Positions 9,980-62,481 of a stretch of DNA of 64,000 bases are shown piece by piece. Every line of letters begins with the position of its first letter. The first letter of the stretch is position 1. The stretch covers positions 1,900 through 65,899 of the forward strand of contig JAPUJT010000021.1 of assembly GCA_027296055.1 (NCBI GenBank). The letters run 5' to 3'. The notes beneath the pieces are model-generated. The model worked only from the letters and a program-made list of their open reading frames with translations. It did not search any database and was not told where the DNA came from. The position numbers were made by a program, and so were the translations under genes. Source of the stretch: Planctomycetota bacterium. GTDB lineage: Bacteria; Planctomycetota; JAPUJT01.

Positions 9980-10001
9980 CCACCCAGGAGATCCCTCCCC
10001 C

Positions 10002-23924: not shown

Positions 23925-24175
23925 TTTAGCGACGCCGACGGTGGCCTGCAAACCAGGATTCGATTCGTTCCGGGGGGGTGAATCGTTCAAATCGAAGGAC
24001 GGGAGGGTGACAGGCGCTCATCGCCAAGGGATTCGTGGGGGTATTCCACGGTGAATTGATGCATTCAGGTTGCCGGGGATCCATGTCGCACTATACTTAG
24101 GGTGATGAGATTGGCGCCAGGCAGCCGCCTGATAAACCGTCAGGTGGGGATCGATCCAACGGGGGGAGTGGGCTG

Positions 24176-28663: not shown

Positions 28664-28708
28664 TGGCCCCTTGCCTCGCTGTGCAGCGGGACATAAGATA
28701 GGCCGGCC

Positions 28709-44942: not shown

Positions 44943-45050
44943 CTCCCTCTCCACTCCCGGCACGCCCAAGGGGGAGATATTTTAGCCAGAACCGCCCGCG
45001 ACATCTTCCGCTTTCCTACGGAATCCACTCCCCGTAGGTCGGTCCTCGCC

Positions 45051-45122: not shown

Positions 45123-46490
45123 ATGGGAATCCTGAAGAAGCTCATCGGCGGTAAGAAGCCATCCGCCAGGGTCGCCGTGATCGGCCTGGACGGAGCGCCC
45201 TGTTCCCTTCTCGAGACCATGGCCGCGAACGGGCGGATGCCCCATCTGGCCGAGATCCTCGCCGAGGGGACGATGCGGGCGATGGACGCTCCCCTGCCCG
45301 AGATCTCGTCCGTTTCCTGGGCGACCTTCTTCACCGGATGCAATCCAGGCCGTCATGGGATCTTCGGCTTCTCCGACCTCCGGCCATCCTCCTACGACGT
45401 CTACTTTCCCAATCTCGGTGACGTCCGTGGAGAGGCCGTCTGGGATATCGTCGGCCGCTGCGGCGGCCGTTCCGTCGTGCTGAACGTTCCGACGACCTAC
45501 CCGGCGAGGCCGCTGGATGGCGTCCTCTGCTCGGGATTCGTCGCCCTGGACCTCGAGAAGGCGACCTACCCGGATGCGGCGTACCGTTGGCTGAAAGGGA
45601 TCGGGTACCGTATCGACGCGGACATGCGCCTTGCCCGCAAGTCGCTGCCTCGGTTCCTGGAGGACTTGAAGGAGACCCTCGCCCTCCGGGAGAAGGCGTT
45701 GCTGCACTTCTTCGACGAAGAGGACTGGGACCTGTTTATCGGCGTGATCACCGCCACGGACCGGCTACAGCACTTTTTCTTCGAGGACTCCCTCTCGGAG
45801 GATTCCGAGTACCACGATGATTTCTACGAAATCTACCGTGAAACGGATCGATTTCTTGGCGAAATCCACCGCCGGGTGAAGGAGAGGAATGATACGACCC
45901 TTCTCCTGATGAGCGATCATGGTTTTACTCGACTGGAAAAGCAGGTCTACCTGAACCACTGGCTGGTCGAAAAGGGATACCTGTCGTTCGGGAAGAAGGA
46001 ACCGGAGTCCCTGGCCGATATCTCCAGCGATTCCCGGGCGTTCGCTCTCGACCCGTCGCGCATTTATATTCATGAGAAGGGGCGCTACCCGAGGGGTTCG
46101 GTGGAGCCCGGGGAGCCGGCAAGGAAGCTGCGGGAAGAGATCGCAGAGAGACTCGTCGGTCTGGAGCTGGAGGGGAGACCGGTGCTGCGACGAGTTTGGC
46201 GTCGGGAGGAGATATACTCGGGTCCGCGGGCTTCGTCGGCGCCGGATCTCGTCCTCGTCTCAGAGCCCGGCTTCGACCTGAAGGGGGCCCTGGCCAAGGG
46301 TGTCCTCGCCGACCGCGACATATTTTCCGGAATGCATACGCCCGATGACGCCGTCTTCTATCTCAGGGGGAAACCGCTCATCAAGGAAAAGCCGCGAGTG
46401 ATGGATCTCTCCCCGACCATCCTGGCGTTGATGGGGCTGGAGGTCCCGGCGGAGATGGATGGGCGGGTCCTGCTCAGCGAGATGGCCTGA
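45123..46490 (+). CDS. Alkaline-phosphatase-superfamily enzyme (type I phosphodiesterase/nucleotide pyrophosphatase-like), paralog A
   Basis: VAVIGLDGAP (metal-ligand Asp), EISSVSWATFFTGCNPGRHGIFGF (Ser/Thr nucleophile region), LLLMSDHGF (DH metal ligands). Confidence 0.75.
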   Translation: MGILKKLIGGKKPSARVAVIGLDGAPCSLLETMAANGRMPHLAEILAEGTMRAMDAPLPEISSVSWATFFTGCNPGRHGIFGFSDLRPSSYDVYFPNLGDVRGEAVWDIVGRCGGRSVVLNVPTTYPARPLDGVLCSGFVALDLEKATYPDAAYRWLKGIGYRIDADMRLARKSLPRFLEDLKETLALREKALLHFFDEEDWDLFIGVITATDRLQHFFFEDSLSEDSEYHDDFYEIYRETDRFLGEIHRRVKERNDTTLLLMSDHGFTRLEKQVYLNHWLVEKGYLSFGKKEPESLADISSDSRAFALDPSRIYIHEKGRYPRGSVEPGEPARKLREEIAERLVGLELEGRPVLRRVWRREEIYSGPRASSAPDLVLVSEPGFDLKGALAKGVLADRDIFSGMHTPDDAVFYLRGKPLIKEKPRVMDLSPTILALMGLEVPAEMDGRVLLSEMA

Positions 46491-46547
46491 CAGCAAGGAG
46501 GAGCCAGAGAATTGGTTTCCAGGAAGAAAGAGAGTGAGGTCGATCGG

Positions 46548-47381
46548 ATGAAGGAGTCGTCGACTCTTCTGAAGGCGTACGAGGACATCCAGTTCCTGAG
46601 ACGACCGGATCTCCGTCCGGTCCGTCTCCAGCTCGAGCTTCTCAAGGCGGAGATGCTGCAGAGGGAGGAGGGCGTACATTCGACGGTGGTCGTCTTCGGC
46701 AGCACGCGCATCCCCACCCCGGAGGAAGGGAAGAAGATGGTCTCCGAGGAGGAGGCTCATCTCGAGAAGGGGCCGGGCGGTCCAGAGGCGAAGAGGAGGC
46801 TCGAGATCGCCCGACGTCTTCAGGCGAAATCGGTCTACTACGAGGAGGCGCGGAGGTTCGCCGGGATCGTCTCCAGCACGTGCCAGGGCTCGGACAAGTG
46901 CGACTACGTCATCGTGACCGGAGGCGGTCCGGGCATCATGGAGGCGGCGAACCGGGGCGCTCATGAAGTCGGCGCCAAGAGCATGGGCCTGAACATCACC
47001 TTGCCTCTCGAGCAGGCGCCGAACGAGTACATCTCACCGGAGCTGTGCTTCCAGTTCCATTACTTCGCCATCCGCAAGATGCACTTCCTGATGCGAGCCA
47101 AGGCCCTCGTGATCTTTCCGGGAGGGTTCGGGACGTTCGACGAGCTGTTCGAGACCCTCACCCTGGTCCAGACGAAGAAGGTGGAGCCGGTACCCATCAT
47201 CCTCTTCGGAAAGGAGTACTGGCAGAAGGCGGTGAACTTCGAGTTTCTGGTGGACGAGGGTGTTATCTCGCCCGCGGATCTGGATCTCTTCCAGTATGTC
47301 GAGAGCGCGGAAGAGGCATGGAACGTGATCTCGCGCTTCCACAAGCTTGGCGAGACTCGCGCCATTCCGAAACGGGATTGA
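46548..47381 (+). CDS. LOG-family (TIGR00730/PpnN-like) nucleotide 5'-monophosphate nucleosidase
   Basis: VVVFGSTR, IVTGGGPGIMEAANRGA, and FPGGFGTFDELFETLTLVQTKK, the LOG PGGxGTxxE signature. Confidence 0.8.
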   Translation: MKESSTLLKAYEDIQFLRRPDLRPVRLQLELLKAEMLQREEGVHSTVVVFGSTRIPTPEEGKKMVSEEEAHLEKGPGGPEAKRRLEIARRLQAKSVYYEEARRFAGIVSSTCQGSDKCDYVIVTGGGPGIMEAANRGAHEVGAKSMGLNITLPLEQAPNEYISPELCFQFHYFAIRKMHFLMRAKALVIFPGGFGTFDELFETLTLVQTKKVEPVPIILFGKEYWQKAVNFEFLVDEGVISPADLDLFQYVESAEEAWNVISRFHKLGETRAIPKRD

Positions 47382-48203: not shown

Positions 48204-48809
48204 CTACAGGTACCCCAGGTCGGCCAGGCGCTCCTGGACCTTCTTGGCATCGGCCTCGGTATAGGAGGACTCCTTCGCCAGGTGCCCCAGATCGATGAGC
48301 GTTTGCATCACGAGGTCGATGGACTGCTCGACCGACTGATCTGTCGTATCGAGGACCAGTTCGGCCTTGAGAGGATCCTCGAACGGCTGGTGCCAGCCCG
48401 CGATGTCATTGATCTCACCGCGTTCCGCTCTGGCATAGAGCCCCTTGGGATCGCGCTTCTTGCATTCCTCCAGGGTGCACTTGCAGTAGACTTCCACGAA
48501 ATTCTCCACCATGGCGCGCCCTCGGTCGCGATACTCGCGCAGTGGCGAGACGGCCGCGACGATTGCGTTAACACCGTTCCGCGTGAGAAGCTGCATCAGG
48601 TAGGCGAGACGTTTCGTGTTGAGGTCGCGGTCGGCCTTGGAGTACTTCAGGTCCGGGCTGACGTTTTTGCGCACCTCATCCGCGTCCAGGTTCGCTGTTC
48701 GATGTCCCATCGCAAGCAGCCTCTGCTGTACCCCTGATCCGATCGTCGATTTGCCGGAAGCCGGCACGCCCGTGATCCATATTCCGAAGCCCTTCTCCCA
48801 AGTAATCAC
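48204..48809 (-). CDS. cysC: Adenylyl-sulfate (APS) kinase
   Basis: IWITGVPASGKSTIG P-loop and LDADEVRKN...YSKADRD. GTG start follows AGGAGGAG, with a GTGA overlap onto the upstream gene's stop. Confidence 0.85.
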   Translation of the reverse strand: MITWEKGFGIWITGVPASGKSTIGSGVQQRLLAMGHRTANLDADEVRKNVSPDLKYSKADRDLNTKRLAYLMQLLTRNGVNAIVAAVSPLREYRDRGRAMVENFVEVYCKCTLEECKKRDPKGLYARAERGEINDIAGWHQPFEDPLKAELVLDTTDQSVEQSIDLVMQTLIDLGHLAKESSYTEADAKKVQERLADLGYL

Positions 48810-50221
48810 GCAATCTCCTCCTTTCGTCCTGAGCCTCCGCTCTTGTCGATCACCTTGCCCTCCAACCCGTCGGGCGGCTCCATCCCGAGAAGTCTATATA
48901 CGGTCGGGGCGACATCATATATGCGGAGCCTCTCCAGTTCCTCCCCTCCGGACACCGTTCCGTTCGCCATCACGAAGATCCCGTGCTGGGAGTGCATCGC
49001 ATCGTCCGGCCCGATCTCGGTCTCGAAGGAGTAAATCGAATCGTGACCGATGTCCTGGGAGGCCCGCCAGTGAAGGTCTCCGAAATGAACCAGCAGGTCC
49101 GGAGCGTTTGCCACGTAGTCTCCTGTGTAGACGTCCTCGGGAATGAAGGCGGTCGTGGGCAGGGGGTGGCCTCGCTCATCCGGGATCGATTCCAGGGCCT
49201 TCTTCAGGCGTTCCCGGACTTCCGAGTACTCTTCGGGGCTGACGATTCCATGCTTCTCACGGCCACGGACATTCAGGTAGACACGCGAGTAGTAACCACC
49301 GAAGCCCCAGGCGGTCGTCTTCGACCAATCGATGTCCGCCTCCTCTATTCGCACCACGCCCTGAGGCTTCGACCGAAGCGTCATGAACCCCTCCCTGATC
49401 AGGAAGTCGTTCACGCAGATCGCTCCGTCCATTTTCTTGGCGCCATGATCGGAGACGATGAAGACGGCTGTCTCCTTCCGGTCAATGAGCTCGAGGAGTC
49501 TGCCGATCCGCTCGTCCACGTAGACGTAATAGTCCGGGATGGCTCGTTCGAACGGATTGCCCTTCTCGTGCTTTCTATGTTCGGTGTCGTAGTGCTTCCA
49601 GAACGCGTGATGGATTCGATCCGTTCCCATCTCGACCATCTGGAAGTAGTCCCACGGCTTCGTCTTGAGGAAGTGCTCCGCCAGGTCGAATCTCATCCGT
49701 GTCATCTGATGGATCTGATCTAGCAGATGGGTCTTCTCCTCGGTCCGGAAGTTCCGGCAATCGATCATGTAGTCTCCCACGACATCGCGGATCTCCTCTT
49801 TCAGCTCGGGAGGATACGTGTAATCCGAGTCGGTGTCCGGGGCGAGAAACGAGGTAACCATCAATCCGTTTACCGGTTTGGGAGGATAGGTCTGCGGGAC
49901 TCCGAGCAGGACGACCCGTCTCCCCTCCCGGCTGAGGCGATCCCAGATCGTCGGCTCCGGGATCGTCCGGGAGTTGGCGATCTCCATCTCCAGGTAGGTT
50001 CCCTTCCTCCTGTTGCGAAAGCCGAAGCAGTTCAGCCGTCCGGGGTTCGCCGAGGTCGCCATCGCCATCCAGGCAGGGGTCGTGATCGGGGGGATCGTGC
50101 TCTCTAGCTCTCCCCAGGCCCCCTCTTCCATCAGGCGAGATATATTCGGAAGGCTTCCGCGGAACCGATGGAAGACCTCTCGGGGAGGAGCGCAATCCAG
50201 GCCGATGACGAGGACCTTCAT
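48806..50221 (-). CDS. Alkaline-phosphatase-superfamily enzyme (NPP-like), paralog B, embedded between sat and cysC
   Basis: MKVLVIGLDCAP, TIPPITTPAWMAMATSANPGRLNCFGF, VFIVSDHGA: the same signature set as 45123-46490. It starts 17 nt after the sat stop and has a 4-nt overlap with the cysC start. Confidence 0.75.
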   Translation of the reverse strand: MKVLVIGLDCAPPREVFHRFRGSLPNISRLMEEGAWGELESTIPPITTPAWMAMATSANPGRLNCFGFRNRRKGTYLEMEIANSRTIPEPTIWDRLSREGRRVVLLGVPQTYPPKPVNGLMVTSFLAPDTDSDYTYPPELKEEIRDVVGDYMIDCRNFRTEEKTHLLDQIHQMTRMRFDLAEHFLKTKPWDYFQMVEMGTDRIHHAFWKHYDTEHRKHEKGNPFERAIPDYYVYVDERIGRLLELIDRKETAVFIVSDHGAKKMDGAICVNDFLIREGFMTLRSKPQGVVRIEEADIDWSKTTAWGFGGYYSRVYLNVRGREKHGIVSPEEYSEVRERLKKALESIPDERGHPLPTTAFIPEDVYTGDYVANAPDLLVHFGDLHWRASQDIGHDSIYSFETEIGPDDAMHSQHGIFVMANGTVSGGEELERLRIYDVAPTVYRLLGMEPPDGLEGKVIDKSGGSGRKEEIA

Positions 50222-50238
50222 TCATCCTTCCGGATGGG

Positions 50239-51387
50239 TCAATCGACGAATGGGGAGTCGAAGCTTCTTGCGGCCGCGAAGACCTCCGGGCGGAAGATCT
50301 CGGGCGGGAGAGCCTGCCCCTCGAGGATCATCTGGCGGATCTTGGTACCGCTGAAGAAGATCTTGTCCGTGTCCGCGTGCGGGCACGTCCTATCACTCTG
50401 TAGACCGGCGCAAACCTTGCAGTGAAAGAAGTCCCCGCGGATCGTGATGATCTCCACGCCGAGGTCGGGATACTCACGGAAGATATCGATCGCCGCCTCC
50501 GGGGCGTAGAAGCCTCCGGCCCCCGCGTGGTCTCGACCTACTACGAAATGAGTGCACCCGTGGTTCTTCCGGATGATGGCATGATGCACCGCCTCCCGGG
50601 GGCCCGCGTACCTCATCTCCATGGGAAGGATCGTGAGGGCCGTCCGGTCCGGGTTGAAGTAGTTCTTCAGCAGGGCCTCGTAGGTGGCCAGGATCACCTC
50701 ATCCTTGAAATCCCCCTTCTTCTTCCTTCCGATCACCGGGTGGACCAGCAACCCATCCACCTGGGCGAGCACCATCTTCTGCATGTTTTCGTGGCCGGTG
50801 TGCGGGGCGTTGCGGGTCTGGAAGGCGCAGACGGTCTCCCATCCGCGCTGCTCGAAGAGGGCGCGCGTCTCCGCTGGCGTCAGGTTGTACTCGGGAAATG
50901 GCTCGCGGGAGTCGTCGAGCAGGTCTATCTTGCCTCCCAGCAGGACCTCGCCCATATTCTGCAGGCGTGAGACGCCAGGGTGGGCGGTGTCTTCCGTCCC
51001 GAACACCTGGCGGGCAAAGGCGGCCTTGTCCAGCGGGTGCTTCTCCTCCAGGCGCAGGACGGCGATGGCGGTCCCCTTCCGGGTAAGAAGGACGTCCTTC
51101 CCCGCCTCGAACGAGTCGGCCTGCTCGGTCGAGACATCGAGCACGATCGGAATCGTCCAGGGGGTCCCGTCCGCGAGCCGACCGGTCTCCAGGACGGCGA
51201 CGAGTTCAGATCGGACGAGGAAGCCCTCGAGGGGAGAGTAGCGGCCGAATGCGATGTTCCGAACATCGGCCAGCGATTCCGGCGTCACCTCGAGGGAGGC
51301 GATCTCTTTTCGGGCCACCTCGGGCAGTCGCTGCGAAGGGAGCCTACGCTCGGTAAGTTTTCCGCCATGCGGTATCGGTAGTGGCAT
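50239..51387 (-). CDS. sat: Sulfate adenylyltransferase (ATP sulfurylase)
   Basis: QTRNAPHTGHE, HPVIGRKKKGDF, MRYAGPREAVHHAIIRKNHGCTHFVVGRDHAG. GAGGAGG RBS before ATG 51387. Confidence 0.85.
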   Translation of the reverse strand: MPLPIPHGGKLTERRLPSQRLPEVARKEIASLEVTPESLADVRNIAFGRYSPLEGFLVRSELVAVLETGRLADGTPWTIPIVLDVSTEQADSFEAGKDVLLTRKGTAIAVLRLEEKHPLDKAAFARQVFGTEDTAHPGVSRLQNMGEVLLGGKIDLLDDSREPFPEYNLTPAETRALFEQRGWETVCAFQTRNAPHTGHENMQKMVLAQVDGLLVHPVIGRKKKGDFKDEVILATYEALLKNYFNPDRTALTILPMEMRYAGPREAVHHAIIRKNHGCTHFVVGRDHAGAGGFYAPEAAIDIFREYPDLGVEIITIRGDFFHCKVCAGLQSDRTCPHADTDKIFFSGTKIRQMILEGQALPPEIFRPEVFAAARSFDSPFVD

Positions 51388-51550
51388 CTGTTCCTCCTCG
51401 GGCCCAGATCCTAGCAAGATGGGTGTCTACAGACAACGGCGCGTCGGTGAGGAAATCGCTGTCCCTGCGCCGGCCGTCCGACTACAATCTGGGCCTCAGG
51501 CCCGATTTCAAGCGCTCAAGGGCCGTTCGATTGTCGAGGTTTCGCCAGCC

Positions 51551-52546
51551 ATGTACGACGACAAGACTCTCGTGATTACCGGTGGGACCGGCTCTTTCGG
51601 CAAGGCGATCGTCCGCTCGGTTCTCGAGCGATACAAGCCGCGCAAGCTGATCGTCTTCTCGCGCGACGAGCTGAAGCAGTACGAGATGGCCCATGTCTTC
51701 TCGGAGAGCGAGTACCCGTGCATGCGCTATTTCATCGGAGACGTGAGAGATCGGGAACGGCTCGACGAGGCGTTCCGCGGGGCCGATTACGTGATCCACG
51801 CAGCCGCCCTCAAGCAGGTCCCCGCGGCAGAATATAATCCGTTCGAGGCGATCCAGACCAACGTCCTGGGGGCTCAGAACGTGATCCGTGCTGCCATCCG
51901 GGTTGGCGTGAAGCGCGTGATCGCCCTCAGCACGGACAAGGCCGCCAATCCGATCAATCTGTATGGCGCCAGCAAGCTCTGCTCCGACAAGCTGTTCGTT
52001 GCGGGGAACGCGATGGGAGGGGCCGATGGGACGCGGTTCTCCGTCGTCCGGTACGGCAACGTCGCGGGGAGCCGGGGCTCGGTGATTCCACTCTTCCTCA
52101 AGATGAAGGCCTCGGGGACGCTGAAGATCACGGACGAACGGATGACCCGATTCTCGATCACGCTGGAGGAAGGGGTGGATTTCGTCATTGAATCGATGGA
52201 TCGAATGAGAGGGGGAGAAATCTTCGTCCCGAAGCTGCGGAGCCTTCGTGTGGTGGAGGTGGCGAAGGCGATCGCTCCCGAAGCGAAACTCGAAATGGTC
52301 GGGATCCGGGCCGGAGAAAAGCTTCACGAAACGCTCGTACCGGCGGACGAAGCGTGGCACACGGTGGAGTACGAGGACCGATTCATCATCATGCCGACGC
52401 ATCCCTGGTGGACCCGACAAGAGGAGCTCATCGCCGAGGGGGGCAAGCCTTGCGAGATCGGGTTCGCCTACACCAGCGAGACGAACCCCGATTGGCTTTC
52501 CATCGACGACATACGCGAACTCGTTCGTGGCCTCGTCGGACAGTAA
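51551..52546 (+). CDS. pseB: UDP-N-acetylglucosamine 4,6-dehydratase (inverting), PseB/FlaA1-type
   Basis: MYDDKTLVITGGTGSFGKA, the FlaA1/CapD-type SDR pattern, and YGASKL (YxxxK). Confidence 0.85.
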   Translation: MYDDKTLVITGGTGSFGKAIVRSVLERYKPRKLIVFSRDELKQYEMAHVFSESEYPCMRYFIGDVRDRERLDEAFRGADYVIHAAALKQVPAAEYNPFEAIQTNVLGAQNVIRAAIRVGVKRVIALSTDKAANPINLYGASKLCSDKLFVAGNAMGGADGTRFSVVRYGNVAGSRGSVIPLFLKMKASGTLKITDERMTRFSITLEEGVDFVIESMDRMRGGEIFVPKLRSLRVVEVAKAIAPEAKLEMVGIRAGEKLHETLVPADEAWHTVEYEDRFIIMPTHPWWTRQEELIAEGGKPCEIGFAYTSETNPDWLSIDDIRELVRGLVGQ

Positions 52547-52562
52547 GATCTCGAGGGGTGAC

Positions 52563-53693
52563 ATGATCCCCTACGGCCGCCAGTCGCTCGATGAGGACGA
52601 CATCGCCGCCGTCGTTCAGGCGCTACGATCCGACTGGCTGACCACCGGGCCGGAGATCGAGGCCTTCGAGAAGGCGTTCGTCGGCATCGCCGGGTCGAGT
52701 CACGCCGTGGCTGTCTCCAGCGGCACCGCCGCCCTCCATGCCGCCATGTTCGCGCTGGACGTCAAACCCGGCGACGAGGTGATAGTGCCGGCCTTCACCT
52801 TTGCCGCCACGGCCAACTGTGTGGTCTTCCAGGGCGCCACACCGGTCTTCTGCGACGTGGATCCCAGTTCCCTTCTCGTGTCTCCCGCAGAGGTCGAGTC
52901 GAAGATCACCTCTCGCACGCGCGCTATTCTCAGCGTCGACTATGCGGGGCAGCCCTGCGATTACGACGAACTCCGCGTCCTGGCGGACCGTAACGGTCTA
53001 GCCCTGGTCGCCGACGCGTGCCACGCCCTGGGTGCGGCCTACAAAGGCCGGCCGGCGGGCAGCCTGGCCGATCTTACCGCCTTCAGCTTTCACCCCGTCA
53101 AGCACATGACCACAGGGGAGGGTGGGATGATCACGACGAACGACCCGGATCTCGCGGCGCGCATGAGATCCTTCAGGAATCATGGAATCCAGACGGATCT
53201 GCACCAGCGGGCCAAAGCGGGGACCTGGCAGTACGAGATGACGGAGCTGGGCTACAACTACCGGCTCACGGACATCCAGTGCGCCCTGGGTCGCAGCCAG
53301 CTCCGGAAGCTACCAGGATGGGTGGATCGGCGACGAGAGATTGCCAGGAGATTCGATTCCGCATTCGAGGGGCTTGACGGGGTGACGCCGCTGCAGACGA
53401 GGCCGGAGCGCACGCATTCCTACCACCTGTATGTCATCCAGGTGGATCCGAAAGTCGTCGACCGCGGCGCCGTGTTCGGCCGGCTGCGGGCGTCGGGCGT
53501 CGGCGCGAACGTGCACTATATGCCTGTTCATCTGCACCCGTTCTATCGTGAGAGGTTCGGGACTGGTCCCGGCCTGTGTCCCACGGCGGAGGCGGCCTAC
53601 GAACTCGTCCTCTCCCTCCCCATCTTTCCCGCGCTTTCCCGCGAGCAGGAACAGGTCGTGATCGAATCGGTCCGGAGCGCCGTCGGAAAGTGA
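52563..53693 (+). CDS. pseC: DegT/DnrJ/EryC1-type PLP aminotransferase (PseC-like)
   Basis: MIPYGRQSLDEDDI..., SGTAALH, FSFHPVKHMTTGEGG (the PLP-Lys block). Confidence 0.85.
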   Translation: MIPYGRQSLDEDDIAAVVQALRSDWLTTGPEIEAFEKAFVGIAGSSHAVAVSSGTAALHAAMFALDVKPGDEVIVPAFTFAATANCVVFQGATPVFCDVDPSSLLVSPAEVESKITSRTRAILSVDYAGQPCDYDELRVLADRNGLALVADACHALGAAYKGRPAGSLADLTAFSFHPVKHMTTGEGGMITTNDPDLAARMRSFRNHGIQTDLHQRAKAGTWQYEMTELGYNYRLTDIQCALGRSQLRKLPGWVDRRREIARRFDSAFEGLDGVTPLQTRPERTHSYHLYVIQVDPKVVDRGAVFGRLRASGVGANVHYMPVHLHPFYRERFGTGPGLCPTAEAAYELVLSLPIFPALSREQEQVVIESVRSAVGK

Positions 53694-53699
53694 TCCGTG

Positions 53700-54458
53700 A
53701 TGAAGATCGAGGTGTTGGCCATCCTCCAGGCGCGTATGGGCTCGAGCCGGCTCCCTGGAAAGATGATGCGTCCGATCGTGGATGGCAAGGGCGCCCTGGA
53801 GCTGATGCTGGGACGCGTCCGGCGGGCCACGACTCTCGATCGAATCGTCGTGGCCACCACCGATAGAGATGGGGACGATATCCTGGCAGAGGTGTGCAGC
53901 CGGCTCGAGATCGACTGTTTCCGCGGAAGCGAGGAGGACGTTCTGGATCGCTTCTACCGGGTCGCCGTAGCCTACGGACCCACGGGGTCCATCGTCCGGC
54001 TCACTGGCGACTGTCCTCTGCACGACCCGGCGGTGATCGACCTGGCCGTCGGGGCCTTCCTCGAGCAGGGGGTGGACTATCTCTCCAACACGGCCCCCCC
54101 CACCTATCCGCACGGGCTGGATACAGAAGTGTTCACCTTTTCCGCCCTGGAGGAGTCTCAGCGAGAGGCCCGCCTGAGCTCGGAGCGTGAGCACGTGACA
54201 CCGTACATTCGTAGCCACCCCGAACGGTTTCAACAGGGGAACCTGGCAAACGACAAGGATCTTTCGGCCTTGCGCTGGACACTGGATGAGCCGGAGGACC
54301 TGGAGTTCATCCGCGCGGTCTATGCCTCGCTGGGAGACCGCTCCTTCGGGATGGCCGAGGTGTTGGGGCTGCTGGAGTCTCGTCCTCAGCTGAGCGAGAT
54401 CAATCGCGGATTCACGCGGACCGTGGATGATCGAAAGCCCTTGCCGGAGGAGGGTTGA
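53700..54458 (+). CDS. pseF: SpsF/FlmC-type cytidylyltransferase (putative CMP-nonulosonate synthetase)
   Basis: LAILQARMGSSRLPGKMM and a CTP_transf_3-like pattern (VATTD..DD, RGSEEDVLDRF, VRLTGDCP). Confidence 0.7.
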   Translation: MKIEVLAILQARMGSSRLPGKMMRPIVDGKGALELMLGRVRRATTLDRIVVATTDRDGDDILAEVCSRLEIDCFRGSEEDVLDRFYRVAVAYGPTGSIVRLTGDCPLHDPAVIDLAVGAFLEQGVDYLSNTAPPTYPHGLDTEVFTFSALEESQREARLSSEREHVTPYIRSHPERFQQGNLANDKDLSALRWTLDEPEDLEFIRAVYASLGDRSFGMAEVLGLLESRPQLSEINRGFTRTVDDRKPLPEEG

Positions 54459-54459
54459 G

Positions 54460-55497
54460 GTGCCCGGGAGAATTCTGGTACGCGCTGACGCTAGCACCCG
54501 GATAGGAACGGGGCATCTGATGCGCTGTCTGGCGCTGGCTCAGGGCTGGCGCGAGCAGGGAGGGGAGGCCACGTTTCTCCTCCGGGCCGGCGCGCCATCG
54601 ATCGAGGCAAGGCTGCAGTCGGAGGGCCTCGCGGTTCGCCGCCTGGCCGCCGGGGCGGCCGGCCCGGAGGATGCGGCGGAGACGGCTTCCGTGGCCCGTG
54701 AGCTCGAGGTGGCCTGGGTTGTCGTCGATGGGTACTCGTTCGACAGCGATTTCCAGGAGACGTTGAAGAAGGACGGGCAGAAGGTCCTCTGGGTGGACGA
54801 CTACGGCCACACGGGGAACTACCCGGCCGACATCATCCTCGACCAGAACATCGATTCCGACCCCGACCTCTACTCCCGGAGGGCCGCGGGCTCGAAGCTC
54901 CTCATCGGCACTCGCTATGTTCTCCTGCGGCGCGAATTCTGGCCGTTGCAGACCTGGAGGCGAGAGAACCCTGAGCGCGCCCGACGTCTCCTCGTGACCC
55001 TGGGAGCCGGGGATCACGGTGCTGTCACGGGAAAGGTCATCTCGGGAATAGGTCTTCTTGACGATCCGGATCTGGAGACGACCGTGGTCGTCGGAGGGGA
55101 GAATCCACATCGTGAGGCCATCGAGGAGGCCGGGCGATCCTCCGGGCGCGCTATCCGGGCCGCCTCCGACGTTCGGGACATGTCGGATCTCATGACCCGG
55201 TCGGACATCTGTGTCTCTGCCGGAGGGACCACCTGCTGGGAGCTGAGCTTCCTGGGACTTCCGAGCTTGATCATCGAGGTGGCGGACAACCAGAGGAGGC
55301 TGGCGCGGGGTCTGGAGAAGGCCGGCGCGGCCTCGAGTCTGGGGTGGCACGAATCCTGTTCGGCGAAGGATATCGCCAGAGGTCTGGAGGCCCTGATTCA
55401 CGATGCCGCGGGTCGAGAGAAGATGTCCCGCGTCGGACGAGAGCTGGTGGACGGTGACGGCGTCTCCCGCGTCGTTCGCGCCATGCGAGGAGACTGA
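54460..55497 (+). CDS. pseG: PseG-like UDP-sugar hydrolase (GT28/MurG-like fold)
   Basis: ILVRADASTRIGTGHLMRCLALA is the typical PseG N-terminus. C-terminus ICVSAGGTTCWEL. GTG 54460 lies 1 nt after the pseF stop. Confidence 0.7.
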   Translation: MPGRILVRADASTRIGTGHLMRCLALAQGWREQGGEATFLLRAGAPSIEARLQSEGLAVRRLAAGAAGPEDAAETASVARELEVAWVVVDGYSFDSDFQETLKKDGQKVLWVDDYGHTGNYPADIILDQNIDSDPDLYSRRAAGSKLLIGTRYVLLRREFWPLQTWRRENPERARRLLVTLGAGDHGAVTGKVISGIGLLDDPDLETTVVVGGENPHREAIEEAGRSSGRAIRAASDVRDMSDLMTRSDICVSAGGTTCWELSFLGLPSLIIEVADNQRRLARGLEKAGAASSLGWHESCSAKDIARGLEALIHDAAGREKMSRVGRELVDGDGVSRVVRAMRGD

Positions 55498-55580
55498 GGG
55501 TCCCGTCTTCGCCGCTCCGTCTGTCATGGGGTCGGGCCGCCCGCTATCATGGCGTTCGATCGAGGAGAGGAGTTGCGCTC

Positions 55581-56066
55581 ATGCTGACACTTCGCCCCTA
55601 CACGCCGGATGACCTCGAACGGCTGCTGGCCTGGCGCAACGACCCGGCCACCCGAGCGATGTCCCGCCAGGGTCATGAGGTATCCCGAGATGAGCACGCC
55701 GCCTGGATGGAGGCGACGCTTCAGGATCCGAAGCGGGTCCTCCTGGTGATCGATGAGGATGGAGTCCCCAAGGGAACCGCTCGGCTGGACGTCGAGGACG
55801 GAATGGAGGCGGAGGTGAGCATCACCGTGGCCCCGGAGGCGCGAGGCGTGGGGCTGGGGTTCAAGGCGTTGCAACTCGCCTGCGACCACGCCTTCGATCA
55901 GATGGGAGTACGGGAGATCCGGGCCGAGATCCGCGCGGAGAATACCGCTTCGATCCAGATATTCACCCGGGCCGGATTCGTCCACGAAGGGGAGTCGGAG
56001 GGCTTCGGGCGCTATCGCCTGAGACCGCCGTCCGATGGCGAGCCCGACCCTGAGGGGGAGCGGTGA
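55581..56066 (+). CDS. pseH: GNAT N-acetyltransferase (PseH-like)
   Basis: 161-aa GNAT with ...RGVGLGFKAL (acetyl-CoA-binding Q/RxxGxG/A). Its position between pseG and pseI supports the call. Confidence 0.6.
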   Translation: MLTLRPYTPDDLERLLAWRNDPATRAMSRQGHEVSRDEHAAWMEATLQDPKRVLLVIDEDGVPKGTARLDVEDGMEAEVSITVAPEARGVGLGFKALQLACDHAFDQMGVREIRAEIRAENTASIQIFTRAGFVHEGESEGFGRYRLRPPSDGEPDPEGER

Positions 56067-57118
56067 CGGCGACGCTGACGATCCCGGGACGAACGATCGG
56101 GACGGGCCATCCCGTCTATGTCGTGGCTGAGATGTCCGGGAACCATCATCAGAGCTTCGACCGGGCCGTGCAGATCGTCCGCGCGGCGAAGGAGGCCGGG
56201 GCGGATGCGATCAAGCTTCAGACCTACACTGCCGATACGCTGACCATCCAATCCGACAAGGAGTATTTCCGGATAGGCAAGGGCACGATCTGGGAGGGAA
56301 AGACCCTCTACGATCTGTATGGCGAGGCCTACACGCCTTGGGAATGGCAGCCGAAGCTGAGAGACGTGGCGAACGACCTTGGCCTCGACTGTTTTTCCAG
56401 TCCGTTCGATGCCTCTGCCGTCGAGTTCCTCGAGGAAATGGGAGCGTCTCTCTACAAGATCGCCTCCTTCGAGATCGTCGATCTCCCTCTTCTCCGGTGT
56501 GTGGGGGAAAAGCGCAAGCCCGTGATCGTTTCGACCGGGATGGCGACGCTCCCCGAGATTGAAGACGCGGTGCGCACCTTGCGGGAGGCGGGTGCCGCGG
56601 GCGTGGCCCTCCTGAAGTGCACCAGCGCCTATCCGGCCCCACCGGAAGAGATGAACCTCCAGACGATCCCACACCTGTCGCACAAGTTCGACTGCCCGGC
56701 CGGACTCTCTGACCACACGCTCGGCACGACCGTGCCGGTCGCGGCCGTCGCCCTGGGGGCCTCGATCGTGGAGAAGCACTTGACCCTGTCCCGAGAAACC
56801 CCCGGGCCGGACAGCGCCTTTTCTCTGGAGCCGGAGGAGTTCAGTGAGATGGTGAATGCGATCCGCACCGTCGAGAAGGCCCTCGGTGAAGAGCGATATC
56901 AGCCGACGGAGCGGGAGAAGGCGAGTGTAGTCTTTCGTCGCTCGCTCTTCGTTGTCAAGGACATCAAGGGCGGAGAGATTCTCAACAAGGAAAACGTGCG
57001 GTCGATCCGTCCAGGTTACGGCCTTCCCCCGAAACATCTGGATGAAGTCCTGGGCCGGCGCGCGGCGAAAGATCTCGAAGCAGGCACCCCGCTTGGCTGG
57101 GATGGGATAGCCCCATGA
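56063..57118 (+). CDS. pseI: Nonulosonic (pseudaminic/legionaminic) acid synthase, NeuB family with SAF domain
   Basis: VVAEMSGNHHQSFDRA...AGADAIKLQTY, FSSPFD, KIASFE, and a C-terminal SAF-like VKDIKGGEIL..NVRSIRPG. GTGA overlap with pseH. Confidence 0.85.
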   Translation: MTATLTIPGRTIGTGHPVYVVAEMSGNHHQSFDRAVQIVRAAKEAGADAIKLQTYTADTLTIQSDKEYFRIGKGTIWEGKTLYDLYGEAYTPWEWQPKLRDVANDLGLDCFSSPFDASAVEFLEEMGASLYKIASFEIVDLPLLRCVGEKRKPVIVSTGMATLPEIEDAVRTLREAGAAGVALLKCTSAYPAPPEEMNLQTIPHLSHKFDCPAGLSDHTLGTTVPVAAVALGASIVEKHLTLSRETPGPDSAFSLEPEEFSEMVNAIRTVEKALGEERYQPTEREKASVVFRRSLFVVKDIKGGEILNKENVRSIRPGYGLPPKHLDEVLGRRAAKDLEAGTPLGWDGIAP

Positions 57119-58950
57119 CGGAGAGGGTCTGCTTCCTCCGGGAAAAGGACCAGGTCCTCACCCTGGCGTCACAGCCCGGACGCCTACTGGAAACCTCGCG
57201 GCTCATCTCGGTGGATCTCGATGCTTCCGCCGCCCTGGAGGACCTCGACCTGGAATACGAGGAGCTCTGGGATCGGCTGGACCTGGACGAGCTCCGGGCC
57301 CTGGAGGAGAAGGCGTACGACCTGACCGATTCCTGGTACCGGAGAGGCGAACCCCGCCTTCCGGAATGGCTCGTCGAGGTTTTGCCCCTGGATCGGGTGA
57401 CGTGGTGCGGCGTGTTCAGGGATGCCCTCCTGGCGAGGAAGCTCTTCGAGCGGGTCGTGACGACGGAGGTGGGGGAAATCTGCCTCTGCACCCCTCATCG
57501 GGGCGGGTCTCCGTTCGCCTCCTCCAACGATGTGCCCGACGCCGTGTGGGCATTCCAGGCCCAGCAGACGGGCCTGGACTTGCGCCTGGTTCCTCGCCGG
57601 TCCTCCAGCAAGCACAGCCGATGGCAGCGATACGCGAGAGAGATGGATCGGCTGCTGACGGCGCCCAGGAGAATCGTCGAGGGAGTGCTCCACACGACGC
57701 AATCTCGGTCTCTCGGAGAAGGCCCGATCCTCTTCTATGCGAGTCCGGGGGAACGGAAGAGATACGCCGGGATTTGCCGGGCCCTCAAGAAGATCCTGGG
57801 GAATCGATTCCTGGCCCTCACGCGCGGTCGCAGAGGCCAGTCTGGCGAAGGGGTCTTCCGGACTCTCGAGAGCTTCACGGGAAGGATTTCGAGTCGTTCA
57901 CCCGGGGAGGAACTCCAGCTCGCAGAGCTCCCCGTGGCGGAGGAATACCCGTACCTCTTTCGCAACGAGCATCTCTTCACGTATTTCGATCACCATCGGA
58001 AGAGCCGGTGGCCGAAAACCTCCTCCCTCCTGACCCATCTCGACCGGTTCATCCGGGAGATTCAACCGGCCGCCGTGCTCGTCACGGACTCGTCCTATTA
58101 CTACCAGAACGCGATCTGCCTGGCGTCCAGGAAGCGGAACGTACCCGTCGTCGCCGTCCCCCACTCCACCACCCCCGGCGTGTTCCCCCTACGTCTGCGA
58201 GCGGACGCCGCGTTCGCCTGGACGGAGGCCTATCGGCAAACGTTCATCAGGGACGGCTTGCCTGATGACCGGGTGTTCCTGGTTGGGGTGCCTGCAGATC
58301 TGCTTCGTGGCGCCTACTCCTCGAGGGTCGACTCGCGCCGGTCTTCGGGCGACCCGGAAAGGCGGACGGTACTGGTGCTCTCTGCCGGAACCAAGCGAGG
58401 TCTTCTGCCCTTCACCGATCTGTCCACCTATCCCGCCATGGTCAAGGAGCTCGTCACCATTCCGGAGGACCTTCGAGATCGCGTCGATGTCTGCTGGAAG
58501 TGCCACCCGAACAACGATCACTTCGAATTTTATCAGGTGGTTGCGCGAAAGGCCGGCGCATCGAACGTGCGGATCGTTCGAACCGAGCCGCTCGAGGCGC
58601 TGGTGAACCAGGCGGATGTCGTGGTCCTGCCGACGACGCCGACCTCTTCCTATCTTGCCGCGCTGTTTGCCGACAAGCCGATCGTGTTCTGTAACGGCGG
58701 TCAGGTAGGAACGGAACTCTTTCAACCCGCGGACGAGCAGGGTTGCGTCGTCATAGACGATGTCTCCGGCATCTGGCCGGCGATCCGGCGGCTCCTCTTC
58801 GAGGACGAGTACCGGGAATCACTCCTCGCGCGGGCCCGCGCCTTTCGGGAGGAGTTCGCCGGAGAGTCTGACCTGCAACCGGCCGACAGGATTGCCGAGA
58901 AGATGAACCAGCGCCTCGACGAGCTAGCGCTCAGTTCCACGACGCGGTAG
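57115..58950 (+). CDS. Unknown 611-aa protein, GT-B-like two-Rossmann layout; candidate nonulosonate transferase
   Basis: ATGA overlap with the pseI stop. Two alpha/beta halves, AAVLVTDSSYYYQNAICLASRKRNVPVVAVPHS and TVLVLSAGT...ADVVVLPTTPTSSYLAALFADKPIVF. No family recognised with certainty. Confidence 0.45.
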   Translation: MTERVCFLREKDQVLTLASQPGRLLETSRLISVDLDASAALEDLDLEYEELWDRLDLDELRALEEKAYDLTDSWYRRGEPRLPEWLVEVLPLDRVTWCGVFRDALLARKLFERVVTTEVGEICLCTPHRGGSPFASSNDVPDAVWAFQAQQTGLDLRLVPRRSSSKHSRWQRYAREMDRLLTAPRRIVEGVLHTTQSRSLGEGPILFYASPGERKRYAGICRALKKILGNRFLALTRGRRGQSGEGVFRTLESFTGRISSRSPGEELQLAELPVAEEYPYLFRNEHLFTYFDHHRKSRWPKTSSLLTHLDRFIREIQPAAVLVTDSSYYYQNAICLASRKRNVPVVAVPHSTTPGVFPLRLRADAAFAWTEAYRQTFIRDGLPDDRVFLVGVPADLLRGAYSSRVDSRRSSGDPERRTVLVLSAGTKRGLLPFTDLSTYPAMVKELVTIPEDLRDRVDVCWKCHPNNDHFEFYQVVARKAGASNVRIVRTEPLEALVNQADVVVLPTTPTSSYLAALFADKPIVFCNGGQVGTELFQPADEQGCVVIDDVSGIWPAIRRLLFEDEYRESLLARARAFREEFAGESDLQPADRIAEKMNQRLDELALSSTTR

Positions 58951-58957
58951 TCGGCCC

Positions 58958-60664
58958 CTACACGGGGGACCAGCTCTCCCGGACGACCCCTTCCTGATCG
59001 TACCAGACACGATCCTTCTGGCGGCTCCGCTCGAGGACGCCTCGAAAGAGGTCCTTTCCCTCCGTGTCGAGGCGGCTCTTTCCCAGAACCGCGAGGAAGA
59101 AGCGAAGCCGGTCGGAGGTTCCGATCCAGGAGGGGACCGTCGCGTTCAGCTGGGCAAGGTTCTCGAGACGGAGCTTGAGGGGGACCTGGGCGCGAAGGCT
59201 GAGATCCTCGAGGTCGAGAAACGTGAAGCCCCACGCGGACCGGGCCCCGTGGACGAGGACGTTGCAGGACTTGAGATCAGCGTGATACAGGCCCGCCTCG
59301 TGCATGTCTCGGAGGGTTAGCGCAAACAAGCTCAGCATCGAACGCAGCGCCTCATGCCGCGCGGGCCCTTCGGCCACGCGGCAAAGCGCTCTGTCCATCT
59401 CCACCGCGTCGGGGATCGGCGCCATGATGAGAACGGAGTCGAACGGCATGCCCCGCCAAGCCCTATCGGCAACTCCGATGATCGGGGGGGCACCGAGCCC
59501 CTTGCCTCTCAGGGCCTCCGCATGCTTCCACGCGCGAACTGCCCGGGAGCCACTGATGAGGGAGTGGAGCGAATCGGCCAGACCGCCGCTCCTGTAATGC
59601 TTCACGATGATCTCGCCGTCCGGATCCGGGAGTCGGGCGACGCGGCCCTTGTGACCCTCGCGCAGGATCCGGATGCCTCCTCTCTCGAGTGATGTCTGGT
59701 ACCGATCCACGATCCTCCGCACCCTCTCTGATTCTCCCGTACGGACGGTGAGTTCGAGTGGGGATCGATCGTTGGAGGAGTGTCCGTCTCCATCGATCCG
59801 ACTGCGGCCAGGTCTCGAAAAATAGCTTCTCGGGATGAGACGCCAGGTCTTGAGGCTGAAGGGCCATGTCCGGACCGCTTTTCCGAGCGTGTGTCGGCCT
59901 TCCTCGGTCTCACCGAGGGCCAGTTGGTGCTTTCCGACACTCGCCTGCAGGTAGGCCATGCGGCGACGGGCGGCCCACCTGGGGATCCTGTCCGGGTCAT
60001 CGTAGCGGCCGATGAGGTCGACGTAGATTTTCCGGCTCTGGAGGACGTCGCGGCTCTTGCCGCCCGGGTGATGCCGGTAAATCGCCAGGGGGCTGGGGAT
60101 GTATCCGAGGGGAAACGCCCTGGCCAGGCGGAGCCAGAGATCGAGGTCCTGGTTGATGGGGAGGTCCGGATCGAATCTGCCGACGTTGTCGAAGCAATCC
60201 CTGCGGACCATCACCGTCGAGGTGCGGACGAAATTCTTCTCCCACACCTCTCGGAAGACATGGCCCGAACGGCCCTCGCGCGTGCGCAGGAATTCCCTCC
60301 CCCCTTCGAGCTTCCAGTAGGAGGAGGCAAGCCATGCGTACTCGGGCCGGCCGCGGAGGAAGGAGACCTGGACCTCCGTCTTCATGTCGATCCAGAGGTC
60401 GTCCGAATCGAGGAAGGCGATCCAACTCCCTCGGGACTCTTCAATGCCGAGGTTTCTCGCGCTGGCAGACCCGCCCTGCTCCTTCCGGATGACACGGATC
60501 CGTTTCCCGAATCGACGGAGCCGATCCGATGTGTCGTCGGTGGAGCCGTCATCGATCACGAGGATCTCTCGGTCACGGAACGTCTGACGAAGGGCGCTCT
60601 CGACAGCGTCTTCGATGAAGCTCGCCCGATTGTGTGTCGGAATGACGATGCTTACCTCGGGCAT
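58958..60664 (-). CDS. Fusion of a GT2 glycosyltransferase and an LPS-kinase (Kdo/WaaP-family) domain
   Basis: N-terminus VSIVIPTHNRASFIEDAVESALRQTF..ILVIDDGSTDDT...FLDSDDLW (GT2 DxD). C-terminus LYHADLKSCNVLVH...FTFLDLEDL (HxDLKxxN and D-L-D kinase motifs). Confidence 0.75.
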   Translation of the reverse strand: MPEVSIVIPTHNRASFIEDAVESALRQTFRDREILVIDDGSTDDTSDRLRRFGKRIRVIRKEQGGSASARNLGIEESRGSWIAFLDSDDLWIDMKTEVQVSFLRGRPEYAWLASSYWKLEGGREFLRTREGRSGHVFREVWEKNFVRTSTVMVRRDCFDNVGRFDPDLPINQDLDLWLRLARAFPLGYIPSPLAIYRHHPGGKSRDVLQSRKIYVDLIGRYDDPDRIPRWAARRRMAYLQASVGKHQLALGETEEGRHTLGKAVRTWPFSLKTWRLIPRSYFSRPGRSRIDGDGHSSNDRSPLELTVRTGESERVRRIVDRYQTSLERGGIRILREGHKGRVARLPDPDGEIIVKHYRSGGLADSLHSLISGSRAVRAWKHAEALRGKGLGAPPIIGVADRAWRGMPFDSVLIMAPIPDAVEMDRALCRVAEGPARHEALRSMLSLFALTLRDMHEAGLYHADLKSCNVLVHGARSAWGFTFLDLEDLSLRAQVPLKLRLENLAQLNATVPSWIGTSDRLRFFLAVLGKSRLDTEGKDLFRGVLERSRQKDRVWYDQEGVVRESWSPV

Positions 60665-62240: not shown

Positions 62241-62481
62241 GATGGATCCCTCCGGATGGGAGACGGCTATCCGCCGCACCTCCAGGTGCTGCGTCGTGAG
62301 CCGGCTGCCGTGGTCACTCGGGCTCTGGAGGGGAATATTATAGCCGTTGACGGGCCGCACGGAAGTGGGCCCTTGATCAGAGGACGGGAGGGGTGATAGG
62401 CTCTCCGCCCCTCCCCTCAGGTCGGGCACAGGCGACGCGAGGGGCTCTCCACGTGCCTCCACTCACTGAGGAGCTATCCGG

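Follow-up and report, generated by a model that had tools for sequence, protein, structure and literature searches.

Sulfate activation by a triad of ATP sulfurylase, inorganic pyrophosphatase (PPase) and the kinase of adenosine 5'-phosphosulfate (APS) is known from the Entamoeba mitosome, stramenopiles and haptophytes. ATP sulfurylase is fused to the pyrophosphatase in stramenopiles and haptophytes, where pyrophosphate hydrolysis pulls the ATP sulfurylase equilibrium (PMC2275785), and work on Entamoeba presents the three activities together as the pathway of sulfate activation (PMC6801973). A locus of similar composition lies in a 64,000-nucleotide stretch (the window) of contig JAPUJT010000021.1 from a Planctomycetota bacterium. 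Between its genes for ATP sulfurylase (sat) and APS kinase (cysC) stands a gene for an uncharacterised member of the alkaline phosphatase (AP) superfamily, which we call NPP1 after the nucleotide pyrophosphatases/phosphodiesterases (NPPs). The locus is a sulfate-activation triad with NPP1 in the helper position. As in the known triad, Sat and APS kinase are found together with a helper, and Sat-NPP1 and CysC-NPP1 fusions from other genomes mirror the ATP sulfurylase-PPase fusions of stramenopiles and haptophytes. However, the helper here has the NPP fold of the AP superfamily and a threonine nucleophile, and belongs to none of the PPase families I, II and III; its hydrolysis of pyrophosphate (PPi) is putative, and the module is often accompanied by a second AP-superfamily protein (NPP2), PHP-domain proteins and glycan genes. 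The core of the finding is NPP1, which comes from a highly conserved uncharacterised family; the conserved unit is sat-NPP1-cysC.

The explanation that we favour, to which as a whole we assign a probability of about 0.4, is that sat-NPP1-cysC would act as a self-contained sulfate-activation module that makes 3'-phosphoadenosine 5'-phosphosulfate (PAPS) to be used in sulfation, most likely of surface glycans, and not for cysteine. NPP1 would be an accessory hydrolase removing an inhibitory by-product, most likely the PPi released by ATP sulfurylase.

The three genes form a tight minus-strand operon (Table 1), with a 17-nt gap between sat and NPP1, a 4-nt overlap between the end of NPP1 and the start of cysC, and a 163-bp spacer to the divergent pseB gene, all exactly as an earlier note on this DNA had described them. 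The ATG of sat at 51387 is preceded by GAGGAGG. Sat and CysC, the PAPS-synthesis pair, both reach equivalog-level scores with hidden Markov models. A scan of the sat/pseB spacer for the sigma-70 consensus, which is uninformative for this phylum, found no promoter-like site. No terminators were found by scanning the operon region, and an Rfam scan of the window returned no RNA family.

Evidence for a role of NPP1 in PAPS metabolism comes from its genomic context. Of the NPP1 loci, 84 have at least 2.5 kb of sequence on either side; in 50 of these (60%) sat or cysC is no more than 2.5 kb from NPP1, and in 40 both are. The two genes always share the strand of NPP1, most commonly in the order sat-NPP1-cysC or NPP1-cysC-sat. 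The proximity expected by chance is ~0.3%, as a rough estimate for a 5-Mb genome with a single copy each of sat and cysC. Fusion proteins were surveyed among the 150 best-scoring NPP1 representatives. An 856-residue Sat-NPP1 fusion occurs on three contigs; L177, the single locus fetched, shows an unbroken reading frame with a short basic linker. CysC is fused to NPP1 in two cluster members from three contigs, and two metagenome proteins carry a pyruvate kinase barrel, as NPP1-barrel-Sat (P0169, 1151 residues) or NPP1-barrel (P0201, 786 residues). Further fusions join NPP1 to an NTP_transferase domain, to a family 2 glycosyltransferase (GT2) in Elusimicrobiota and to an S-adenosylmethionine-dependent methyltransferase in Altiarchaeales (four contigs), and a tandem NPP-NPP protein is also present. 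A pyruvate kinase gene adjoins NPP1 in none of 176 loci, and the barrel fusion is a rare arrangement. Sat and NTP-transferases both release PPi, and pyruvate kinase regenerates ATP; these three fusion partners are the helper set of enzymatic PAPS synthesis. The co-directional synteny and the Sat-NPP1 and CysC-NPP1 fusions thus tie NPP1 functionally to PAPS, bearing out the earlier note, which was right to pick out the NPP-like gene as the unknown of interest.

The NPP1 family is large and its members carry generic 'alkaline phosphatase family' labels. An exhaustive HMMER search gave 6,024 representatives of 50%-identity clusters at E≤1e-30, and a k-mer-prefiltered search gave 7,043 matches at E≤1e-5, looser thresholds also collecting paralogues. 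At least 576 stretches of species-representative genomes in GTDB encode relatives. Among the carriers are Chloroflexota, Ktedonobacteria, Brocadia and other Planctomycetota, Thermodesulfobacteriota, Acidobacteriota, Verrucomicrobiota, Latescibacterota, Gaiellales, Chthonomonadales, Zipacnadia and, among the archaea, Theionarchaea. The median identity to the window protein is higher for NPP1 (51%) than for Sat (43%) or CysC (44%), which fits an invariant small substrate.

The module is found repeatedly inside or beside glycan-biosynthesis clusters. Besides GT2, GT4 and flippase genes, and a GT9 heptosyltransferase in Ktedonobacteria, the recurrent companions among the 84 loci are a second PF01663 paralogue of the NPP2 type anywhere in the locus (28), an HddA-like GHMP kinase (26), a GalE-like short-chain dehydrogenase/reductase (SDR; 25), a GmhA-like SIS protein (23), myo-inositol-1-phosphate synthase (16) and a PHP-domain protein (5). 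The best NCBIfam model for the PHP-domain neighbour, seen in at least five loci, is 3',5'-nucleoside bisphosphate phosphatase, with 221 bits against a cutoff of 400.

The PF01663 match, the ligand set with its nucleophile, and the NPP-type fold place NPP1 in the NPP/Phosphodiest branch of the AP superfamily. Its AlphaFold2 model (pLDDT 95, pTM 0.93) matches the Xanthomonas NPP (Xac NPP), ENPP1/3/5/6 and PhnA as top Foldseek hits (probability 1.00, TM-score 0.53–0.60). The identity to Xac NPP and the ENPPs is 11–17%. Xac NPP and ENPP1/3 (TM-score 0.55–0.59, E ~1e-18) are the nearest solved folds, with TM-score 0.58 and 16% identity for the nearest; a single-sequence search of the PDB gave no significant match. 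Across 70 sequences, the metal ligands D9, D201, H205, D258, H259 and H410 are invariant, and T47, which aligns with the nucleophile T90 of Xac NPP, is more than 90% conserved. NPP1 therefore shares with Xac NPP and ENPP1/3 the fold, the two-metal ligand set and a threonine in the equivalent T-x-P position. It differs from them in being cytoplasmic, ~90 residues longer and endowed with extra invariant Arg/Lys residues, and in having 'PAW' where NPPs have 'PNH'. R69-N70-R71, R159, R313, R321 and R386 are invariant in the family, and the basic residues K115, R159, K163, R177, R202, K209, R313, R321 and R386 are invariant or nearly so. Judging from its spacing, Asn70 is likely the counterpart of the phosphoryl-binding Asn.

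In NPPs, an aromatic residue after the nucleophilic threonine stacks against adenine or another base. Xac NPP has such a residue (LTFPNH), whereas the corresponding position in NPP1 is T, C, V or I and not a conserved aromatic. NPP1 also lacks the secreted or ecto location of functional NPPs: it has no signal peptide or transmembrane segment, and both NPP1 and NPP2 are cytoplasmic and soluble. No homology to known PPase families (I, II/DHH, III/HAD and membrane) was detected in NPP1, which matches only AP-superfamily Pfam models (PF01663, and weakly Sulfatase and Metalloenzyme); its NCBIfam match is to the AP-superfamily protein PafA, at 21.8 bits. What is proposed for NPP1 is thus a PPase-like activity and not membership of a PPase family.

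NPP2, encoded ~1.7 kb beyond cysC on the opposite strand, is 27% identical to NPP1 and 38–47% identical to the paralogues that accompany NPP1 elsewhere. It represents a separate conserved family (46–51% identity across phyla, with closer relatives at 64–71%) that keeps the metal ligands, has Ser at the nucleophile column and is without several of the NPP1-specific basic residues.

In the proposed mechanism of PPi hydrolysis, a Zn-activated Thr47 would form a phospho-enzyme intermediate, while Asn70, the flanking Arg69 and Arg71, and further basic residues would bind the polyanion. Removal of PPi would pull the very unfavourable Sat reaction forward, and the module would correspond, in prokaryotes and by means of a non-homologous enzyme, to the ATP sulfurylase/pyrophosphatase/APS kinase triad. 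NPP2 might handle a second by-product such as 3'-phosphoadenosine 5'-phosphate (PAP), or modify the acceptor. The sulfotransferase would be encoded outside the window, and the pse genes would be one of many kinds of glycan locus found beside the module. We infer which substrate is used (PPi, not PAP or PAPS), how NPP1 acts and which glycan is targeted; the gene identities, operon structure, synteny, fusions, fold, catalytic residues and cytoplasmic location are observed. That NPP1 is an accessory by-product hydrolase of one kind or the other, PPase or PAP phosphatase, appears about evenly balanced; its narrower assignment as a PPase that pulls ATP sulfurylase is tentative. A PPase would explain the fusions to PPi-releasing enzymes (Sat and NTP-transferase) and to ATP-regenerating pyruvate kinase, as well as the high conservation of NPP1 and the extra positive charge in its active site. 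It would also explain why Sulfotransfer_3 and PHP genes can stand beside Sat-NPP1 in L177, a locus in which these and CysC occur together and the other roles are thus filled.

Several observations weigh against this explanation. About 40% of NPP1 genes have neither sat nor cysC within 5 kb. Many of these belong to glycan clusters, where they immediately follow a flippase gene, are coupled with a GHMP kinase, or form a fusion with a GT2 or a methyltransferase (for example, flippase-NPP1 in L174 and GT2-NPP1-GHMP-NPP2-hexapeptide transferase-GT4 in Verrucomicrobiota), so that NPP1 would there be more naturally a tailoring enzyme. Several of the fusion proteins are singletons from metagenome assemblies. 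Canonical sulfotransferases are present in only one of ten Pfam-annotated NPP1 contexts (L177), and none in the window. Among solved structures, the folds closest to NPP1 belong to nucleotide pyrophosphatases/phosphodiesterases and not to PPi hydrolases, and a housekeeping PPase is normally already present in cells. We know of no enzymology for any member of the NPP1 family, and full-text literature searching turned up no description of these proteins or of their association with sat and cysC. AP-superfamily enzymes are absent from the recognised microbial PPase families in a 2024 review (PMC11210485).

The alternative that survives best, which we nevertheless consider unlikely, is that NPP1 and/or NPP2 form a new structural class of PAPS-dependent sulfotransferase with a covalent sulfo-Thr/Ser intermediate. 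The Zn-activated Thr47 (Ser in NPP2) may attack the sulfur of PAPS, with PAP as the leaving group, and hand the sulfate on to the hydroxyl of a sugar; a glycan containing pseudaminic acid (Pse) could be the acceptor in this genome. EptA/MCR-1, LtaS and the GPI ethanolamine-phosphate transferase PIG-N, which use a Thr or Ser nucleophile and a covalent intermediate for transfer to a glycan or lipid hydroxyl, offer a mechanistic template. They are, however, membrane-anchored and transfer phospho-groups from lipid donors, while NPP1 and NPP2 are soluble.

The case for such an enzyme begins with the scarcity of canonical sulfotransferases. We scanned 51 compositionally plausible open reading frames (ORFs) across all 64 kb with Pfam (E≤0.01) and found no match to the Sulfotransfer_*, PAPS_reduct, sulfite-reductase or CysD/N families. 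The 5'-PSB motif of sulfotransferases (P-K/R-x-G-T/S-T/S) was found in the window only in a spurious antisense ORF. The statement in the earlier note that the region holds no recognisable sulfotransferase therefore stands, and nine of the ten Pfam-annotated contexts likewise have no canonical one. The argument that the note built on this absence is weakened: L177 (1306-18571) has canonical Sulfotransfer_3 genes beside the Sat-NPP1 fusion, together with CysC and a PHP protein, and the module can thus serve ordinary sulfotransferases. The jackhmmer searches seeded with the L177 sulfotransferases gave no match in the window and no further relatives in 2.4 Mb of loci. Canonical PAPS-dependent sulfotransferases (Sulfotransfer_1/2/3) would use the product of this operon; NPP1 and NPP2 are unrelated in fold to their P-loop-like 5'-PSB/3'-PB domain.

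A sulfotransferase would best explain the occurrence of NPP1 within glycan clusters even without sat or cysC, as in the L174 and Verrucomicrobiota examples, and the fusions of NPP1 to GT2 and methyltransferase resemble pairs of tailoring enzymes. The PHP-type genes, similar to pAp phosphatases, adjoin NPP1 and imply local production of PAP. Granular-sludge extracellular polymeric substances (EPS) show widespread sulfation and Pse or legionaminic acid, with few canonical sulfotransferase matches (PMC10483923), and a 2024 review of polysaccharide sulfotransferases has one PAPS-binding fold and no mention of alkaline phosphatase. Other features of NPP1 would be unusual for an acceptor-specific tailoring enzyme, namely its conservation above that of Sat and CysC and its fusions to Sat, pyruvate kinase and NTP-transferase. 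The basic residues around Asn70 point to a phosphoryl substrate of high charge and less to a monoanionic sulfuryl group, and two-metal AP/NPP sites are generally very poor catalysts of sulfuryl transfer. These points, with the Sulfotransfer_3 proteins of L177, weigh against a sulfotransferase.

If a by-product is hydrolysed, it could be PAP instead of PPi. NPP1 would then be a 3'(2'),5'-bisphosphate nucleotidase, an analogue of CysQ that converts PAP to AMP and relieves product inhibition of sulfotransferases. Its NPP fold is a nucleotide-binding one, its numerous invariant basic residues might accommodate a nucleotide with two phosphates (a bisphosphate), and the coupling and fusion to both Sat and CysC would be as expected; no CysQ homologue was found in any locus searched. 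Enzymes of this kind are known to be encoded with PAPS genes, reportedly also in Methanothermococcus thermolithotrophicus, in a study of its sulfate assimilation. In the same way, the pAp phosphatases of the CysQ/IMPase, PHP and DHH NrnA types remove a by-product and are encoded with PAPS synthesis, the PHP type in some NPP1 operons. NPP1, however, is homologous to none of them, and the presence of PHP proteins in the same operons would make it redundant and argues for another role. Nor would a PAP phosphatase explain the NTP_transferase-NPP1 fusion or the NPP1 genes in glycan clusters devoid of PAPS genes, and the aromatic adenine-stacking residue of Xac NPP is not conserved. We regard this assignment as improbable.

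A still less probable alternative is that the operon performs ordinary assimilatory activation for a PAPS reductase encoded elsewhere, with NPP1 as a hitch-hiking phosphatase and the glycan genes adjacent by coincidence. In its favour, the window covers only 64 kb and cysH could be located in another part of the genome, the adjacency to pse is not conserved (see below), and ~40% of NPP1 genes lack a nearby sat or cysC. Hitch-hiking is hard to reconcile with the proximity of sat or cysC in 60% of loci against a roughly estimated ~0.3% at random, or with the shared orientation, the translational coupling and the several independent types of fusion. Glycan genes flank the module, as do sulfotransferase genes in L177. 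In addition, tblastn searches of the window and of 170 related loci (2.28 Mb), with E. coli CysH, CysI, CysJ and CysQ as queries, gave no match. The module thus looks directed at sulfation rather than assimilation. This and the Pfam scan agree with the earlier note, which had seen no cysH, cysI, cysJ or cysD/N genes in the window, and with its view that the PAPS operon is not tied to assimilatory reduction. Two further roles for NPP1 were discarded: a GmhB-like heptose-bisphosphate phosphatase, raised by the HddA- and GmhA-like neighbours, since HAD phosphatases are present in the L005 and L174 clusters and most loci are without heptose genes; and an enzyme using APS or PAPS as adenylyl donor to sugar-1-phosphates, which would be energetically pointless and leave cysC unexplained.

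The earlier note had also proposed that the back-to-back position of the PAPS and pse operons reflects a sulfated nonulosonate-containing glycan. We examined 160 loci of NPP1 relatives at 48–58% identity, 80 of them taken from GTDB species representatives and the other 80 from metagenomes, and pseI, pseG, pseF, pseH and the 611-residue gene were found in none of them; unrelated DegT-type aminotransferases occur in a few. The closest relative of NPP1 (L007, 80% identity) has the same sat-NPP1-cysC operon, with GT4 and FkbM-type methyltransferase genes as divergent neighbours in place of pse. Conversely, the 16-kb contig L176, which holds the only homologue of the 611-residue protein, carries no sat, NPP or cysC. 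A conserved supra-operon of sat/NPP/cysC and pse is ruled out by these results, and the adjacency, whose conservation in relatives the note had suggested testing, is specific to this lineage. Since it is not conserved, a sulfated nonulosonate-containing glycan in this genome is doubtful. No report of sulfated pseudaminic acid was found by full-text literature searching.

The pse operon resembles the Campylobacter/Helicobacter pseudaminic acid pathway (PseB, C, H, G, I, F) in having PseB, PseC, PseG and PseI together with a GNAT acetyltransferase and a CMP-transferase. It differs in its order, B-C-F-G-H-I, in the appended gene for a GT-B-like 611-residue protein, and in the divergent PAPS module, which is unique to this genome among the loci examined. 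The nonulosonate gene set had been called complete; this holds at the equivalog level for PseB, PseC, PseG and PseI, while PseH and PseF have only family-level matches. For the cytidylyltransferase in the pseF position these are CTP_transf_3 and weak KdsB models, with no match to the NCBIfam PseF equivalog; a homologue with 49% identity occupies the same operon position in L176. The overlapping junctions described earlier do not extend to pseB/pseC, where pseC starts at 52563 (MIPYGRQ), 16 nt past pseB.

The terminal 611-residue gene, previously listed as unknown, is not wholly so, given its weak matches to a GT4 N-terminal domain and to the BFO_1060 glycosyltransferase. Its only homologue in 5.8 billion sequences (49% identity, L176) is likewise the last gene, with its start overlapping the end of pseI, of a pseB-C-(methyltransferase)-F-G-(hexapeptide)-I operon. 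A profile search reached GT-B-fold epimerases at E 0.006. Structure prediction with fold search, suggested in the earlier note for the neighbouring ORFs, was informative for NPP1, with its confident NPP-type fold; the AlphaFold2 model of this protein (pLDDT 50, from a two-sequence alignment) is too poor for use. Since its sole homologue also terminates a pse operon without sat, NPP or cysC, the protein is probably a pse-operon-specific transferase of GT-B type, perhaps a pseudaminyltransferase. The note had counted it among candidates for sulfuryl transfer, a role that we reject: it has no P-loop or PSB motif, its weak matches are GT-B-like, and its homologue is pse-tied. The neighbouring GT2-kinase fusion, another of these candidates, was dismissed on account of its standard GT2 and Kdo/WaaP kinase domains; it suggests a phosphorylated glycan in the same locus.

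Table 1. Features of the sulfate-activation locus and its surroundings in the window
Feature	Positions	Strand	Supporting match
GalE-type UDP-hexose 4-epimerase	43962..44969	-	TIGR01179 403 bits (cutoff 262)
NPP2, PF01663 paralogue	45123..46490	+	PF01663 2.6e-46, 159.3 bits (cutoff 23)
LOG/TIGR00730-family Rossmann protein	46512..47381	+	PF03641 1.1e-32; TIGR00730 97.6 bits (cutoff 96.35)
cysC, APS kinase	48204..48809	-	PF01583 3.8e-46; TIGR00455 166.9 bits (cutoff 138.7)
NPP1, AP-superfamily enzyme	48806..50221	-	PF01663 Phosphodiest 2.2e-46, 159.4 bits (cutoff 23)
sat, homo-oligomeric-type ATP sulfurylase	50239..51387	-	PUA_2 and ATP-sulfurylase; NF003166 464.1 bits (cutoff 387); TIGR00339 365.8 bits (cutoff 322.95)
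sat/pseB divergent intergenic spacer, 163 bp	51388..51550		read from sequence
pseB, UDP-GlcNAc 4,6-dehydratase (inverting)	51551..52546	+	TIGR03589 500.6 bits (cutoff 407.75)
pseC aminotransferase	52563..53693	+	TIGR03588 464.4 bits (cutoff 423.5)
pseF-like CMP-sugar cytidylyltransferase	53697..54458	+	PF02348 CTP_transf_3 2.9e-28
pseG, UDP-sugar hydrolase	54427..55497	+	TIGR03590 218.2 bits (cutoff 153.55)
PseH-like GNAT N-acetyltransferase	55581..56066	+	Acetyltransf_3 1.7e-24; best NCBIfam PseH 61.2 bits (below cutoff 93.1)
pseI, pseudaminic acid synthase	56063..57118	+	TIGR03586 488.4 bits (cutoff 340.25); NeuB and SAF matches
611-residue terminal gene of the pse operon	57115..58950	+	weak Glyco_transf_4 (GT4 N-domain) and weak BFO_1060 glycosyltransferase matches
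GT2 glycosyltransferase fused to Kdo/WaaP-type sugar kinase	58958..60664	-	PF00535 1.3e-31; PF06293 2.3e-13

Several loci of NPP1 relatives have distinctive gene orders. The fullest sulfation gene set seen is that of L177, where a GT2, a 309-residue Sulfotransfer_3 protein and a second GT2 are followed by a 530-residue NPP2-type protein, which abuts, end to start, a 192-residue Sulfotransfer_3-like P-loop protein with a PRSGTS motif. The Sat-NPP1 fusion, CysC, PTPS, a sulfatase-like protein, PHP and a GT4 come next. In Ktedonobacteria (L069 5884-17075; also L041, L072 and L082), a GT9 heptosyltransferase, a GT2 and myo-inositol-1-phosphate synthase precede a run of NPP1, cysC, sat, an HddA-like kinase and a GmhA-like isomerase, as well as a B3_4-domain protein and an SDR. 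Clusters of this type showed neither a HAD phosphatase nor a nucleotidyltransferase, and their product may be a sulfated heptose or inositol glycan. In four Latescibacterota loci (L032, L039, L045 and L067, ~4280-9988), NPP1 overlaps or trails by a few bases the gene of a ~1900-residue protein with PorU/gingipain-like C25 peptidase and FlgD-Ig-like regions, and neither sat nor cysC is present within 10 kb. Other neighbours of NPP1 genes devoid of sat and cysC include an AAC(3)-like N-acetyltransferase and one protein without a PDB match, and give no unifying clue.

Within the window, the LOG-family protein, which is similar to nucleotide 5'-monophosphate nucleosidases and has an N-terminal extension of ~130 residues, is encoded between NPP2 and cysC. 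It might dispose of AMP derived from PAP, its membership in the system being uncertain. A bacterial PH-domain protein (47571-48110) follows the LOG gene. A 476-residue protein (61032-62462, minus strand) adjoins the glycan genes; it belongs to no Pfam or NCBIfam family, and has a lipobox-like LLAACGG sequence, a weak DZR match and about seven zinc-ribbon-like repeats of the form H-x-H...(Y/W/F)-C-x2-C. It may be a metal-binding lipoprotein. The only candidate for a sulfate-related transporter is a gene of the DASS/Na+-sulfate-symporter family (21635-24017, minus strand), whose 5' end overlaps the 3' end of lpxH, encoding UDP-2,3-diacylglucosamine diphosphatase (NF003743 143 bits, cutoff 134). 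This gene and its Metallophos neighbour were excluded from the system, since that neighbour encodes LpxH and the pair lies 25 kb from the PAPS operon. Elsewhere, a 1273-residue protein (28697-32518, plus strand) consists of two tandem AMP-binding modules similar to acyl-CoA synthetases. A 772-residue ORF (41744-44062, minus strand) has GreA N- and C-terminal domains at residues 621-769 only; its unmatched N-terminal part of 600 residues may be a long extension or the result of a mis-joined ORF in GC-rich DNA.

Through the sat/NPP1/cysC unit, NPP1 ranks among the most consistent genomic partners that sulfate activation has in bacteria and archaea. NPP1 may be a fourth structural type of PPase, one devoted to PAPS synthesis, a PAP phosphatase of a new kind or a sulfotransferase of a new class, and all of these leading outcomes would be new. 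If it is a sulfotransferase, the family would supply the 'missing' sulfotransferases of many environmental bacteria and archaea with sulfated surface glycans and EPS. The module would serve as a marker of non-assimilatory, sulfation-directed PAPS synthesis in uncultured lineages, and this marker bears on how environmental bacteria make sulfated EPS glycoconjugates despite the scarcity of canonical sulfotransferase genes (PMC10483923).

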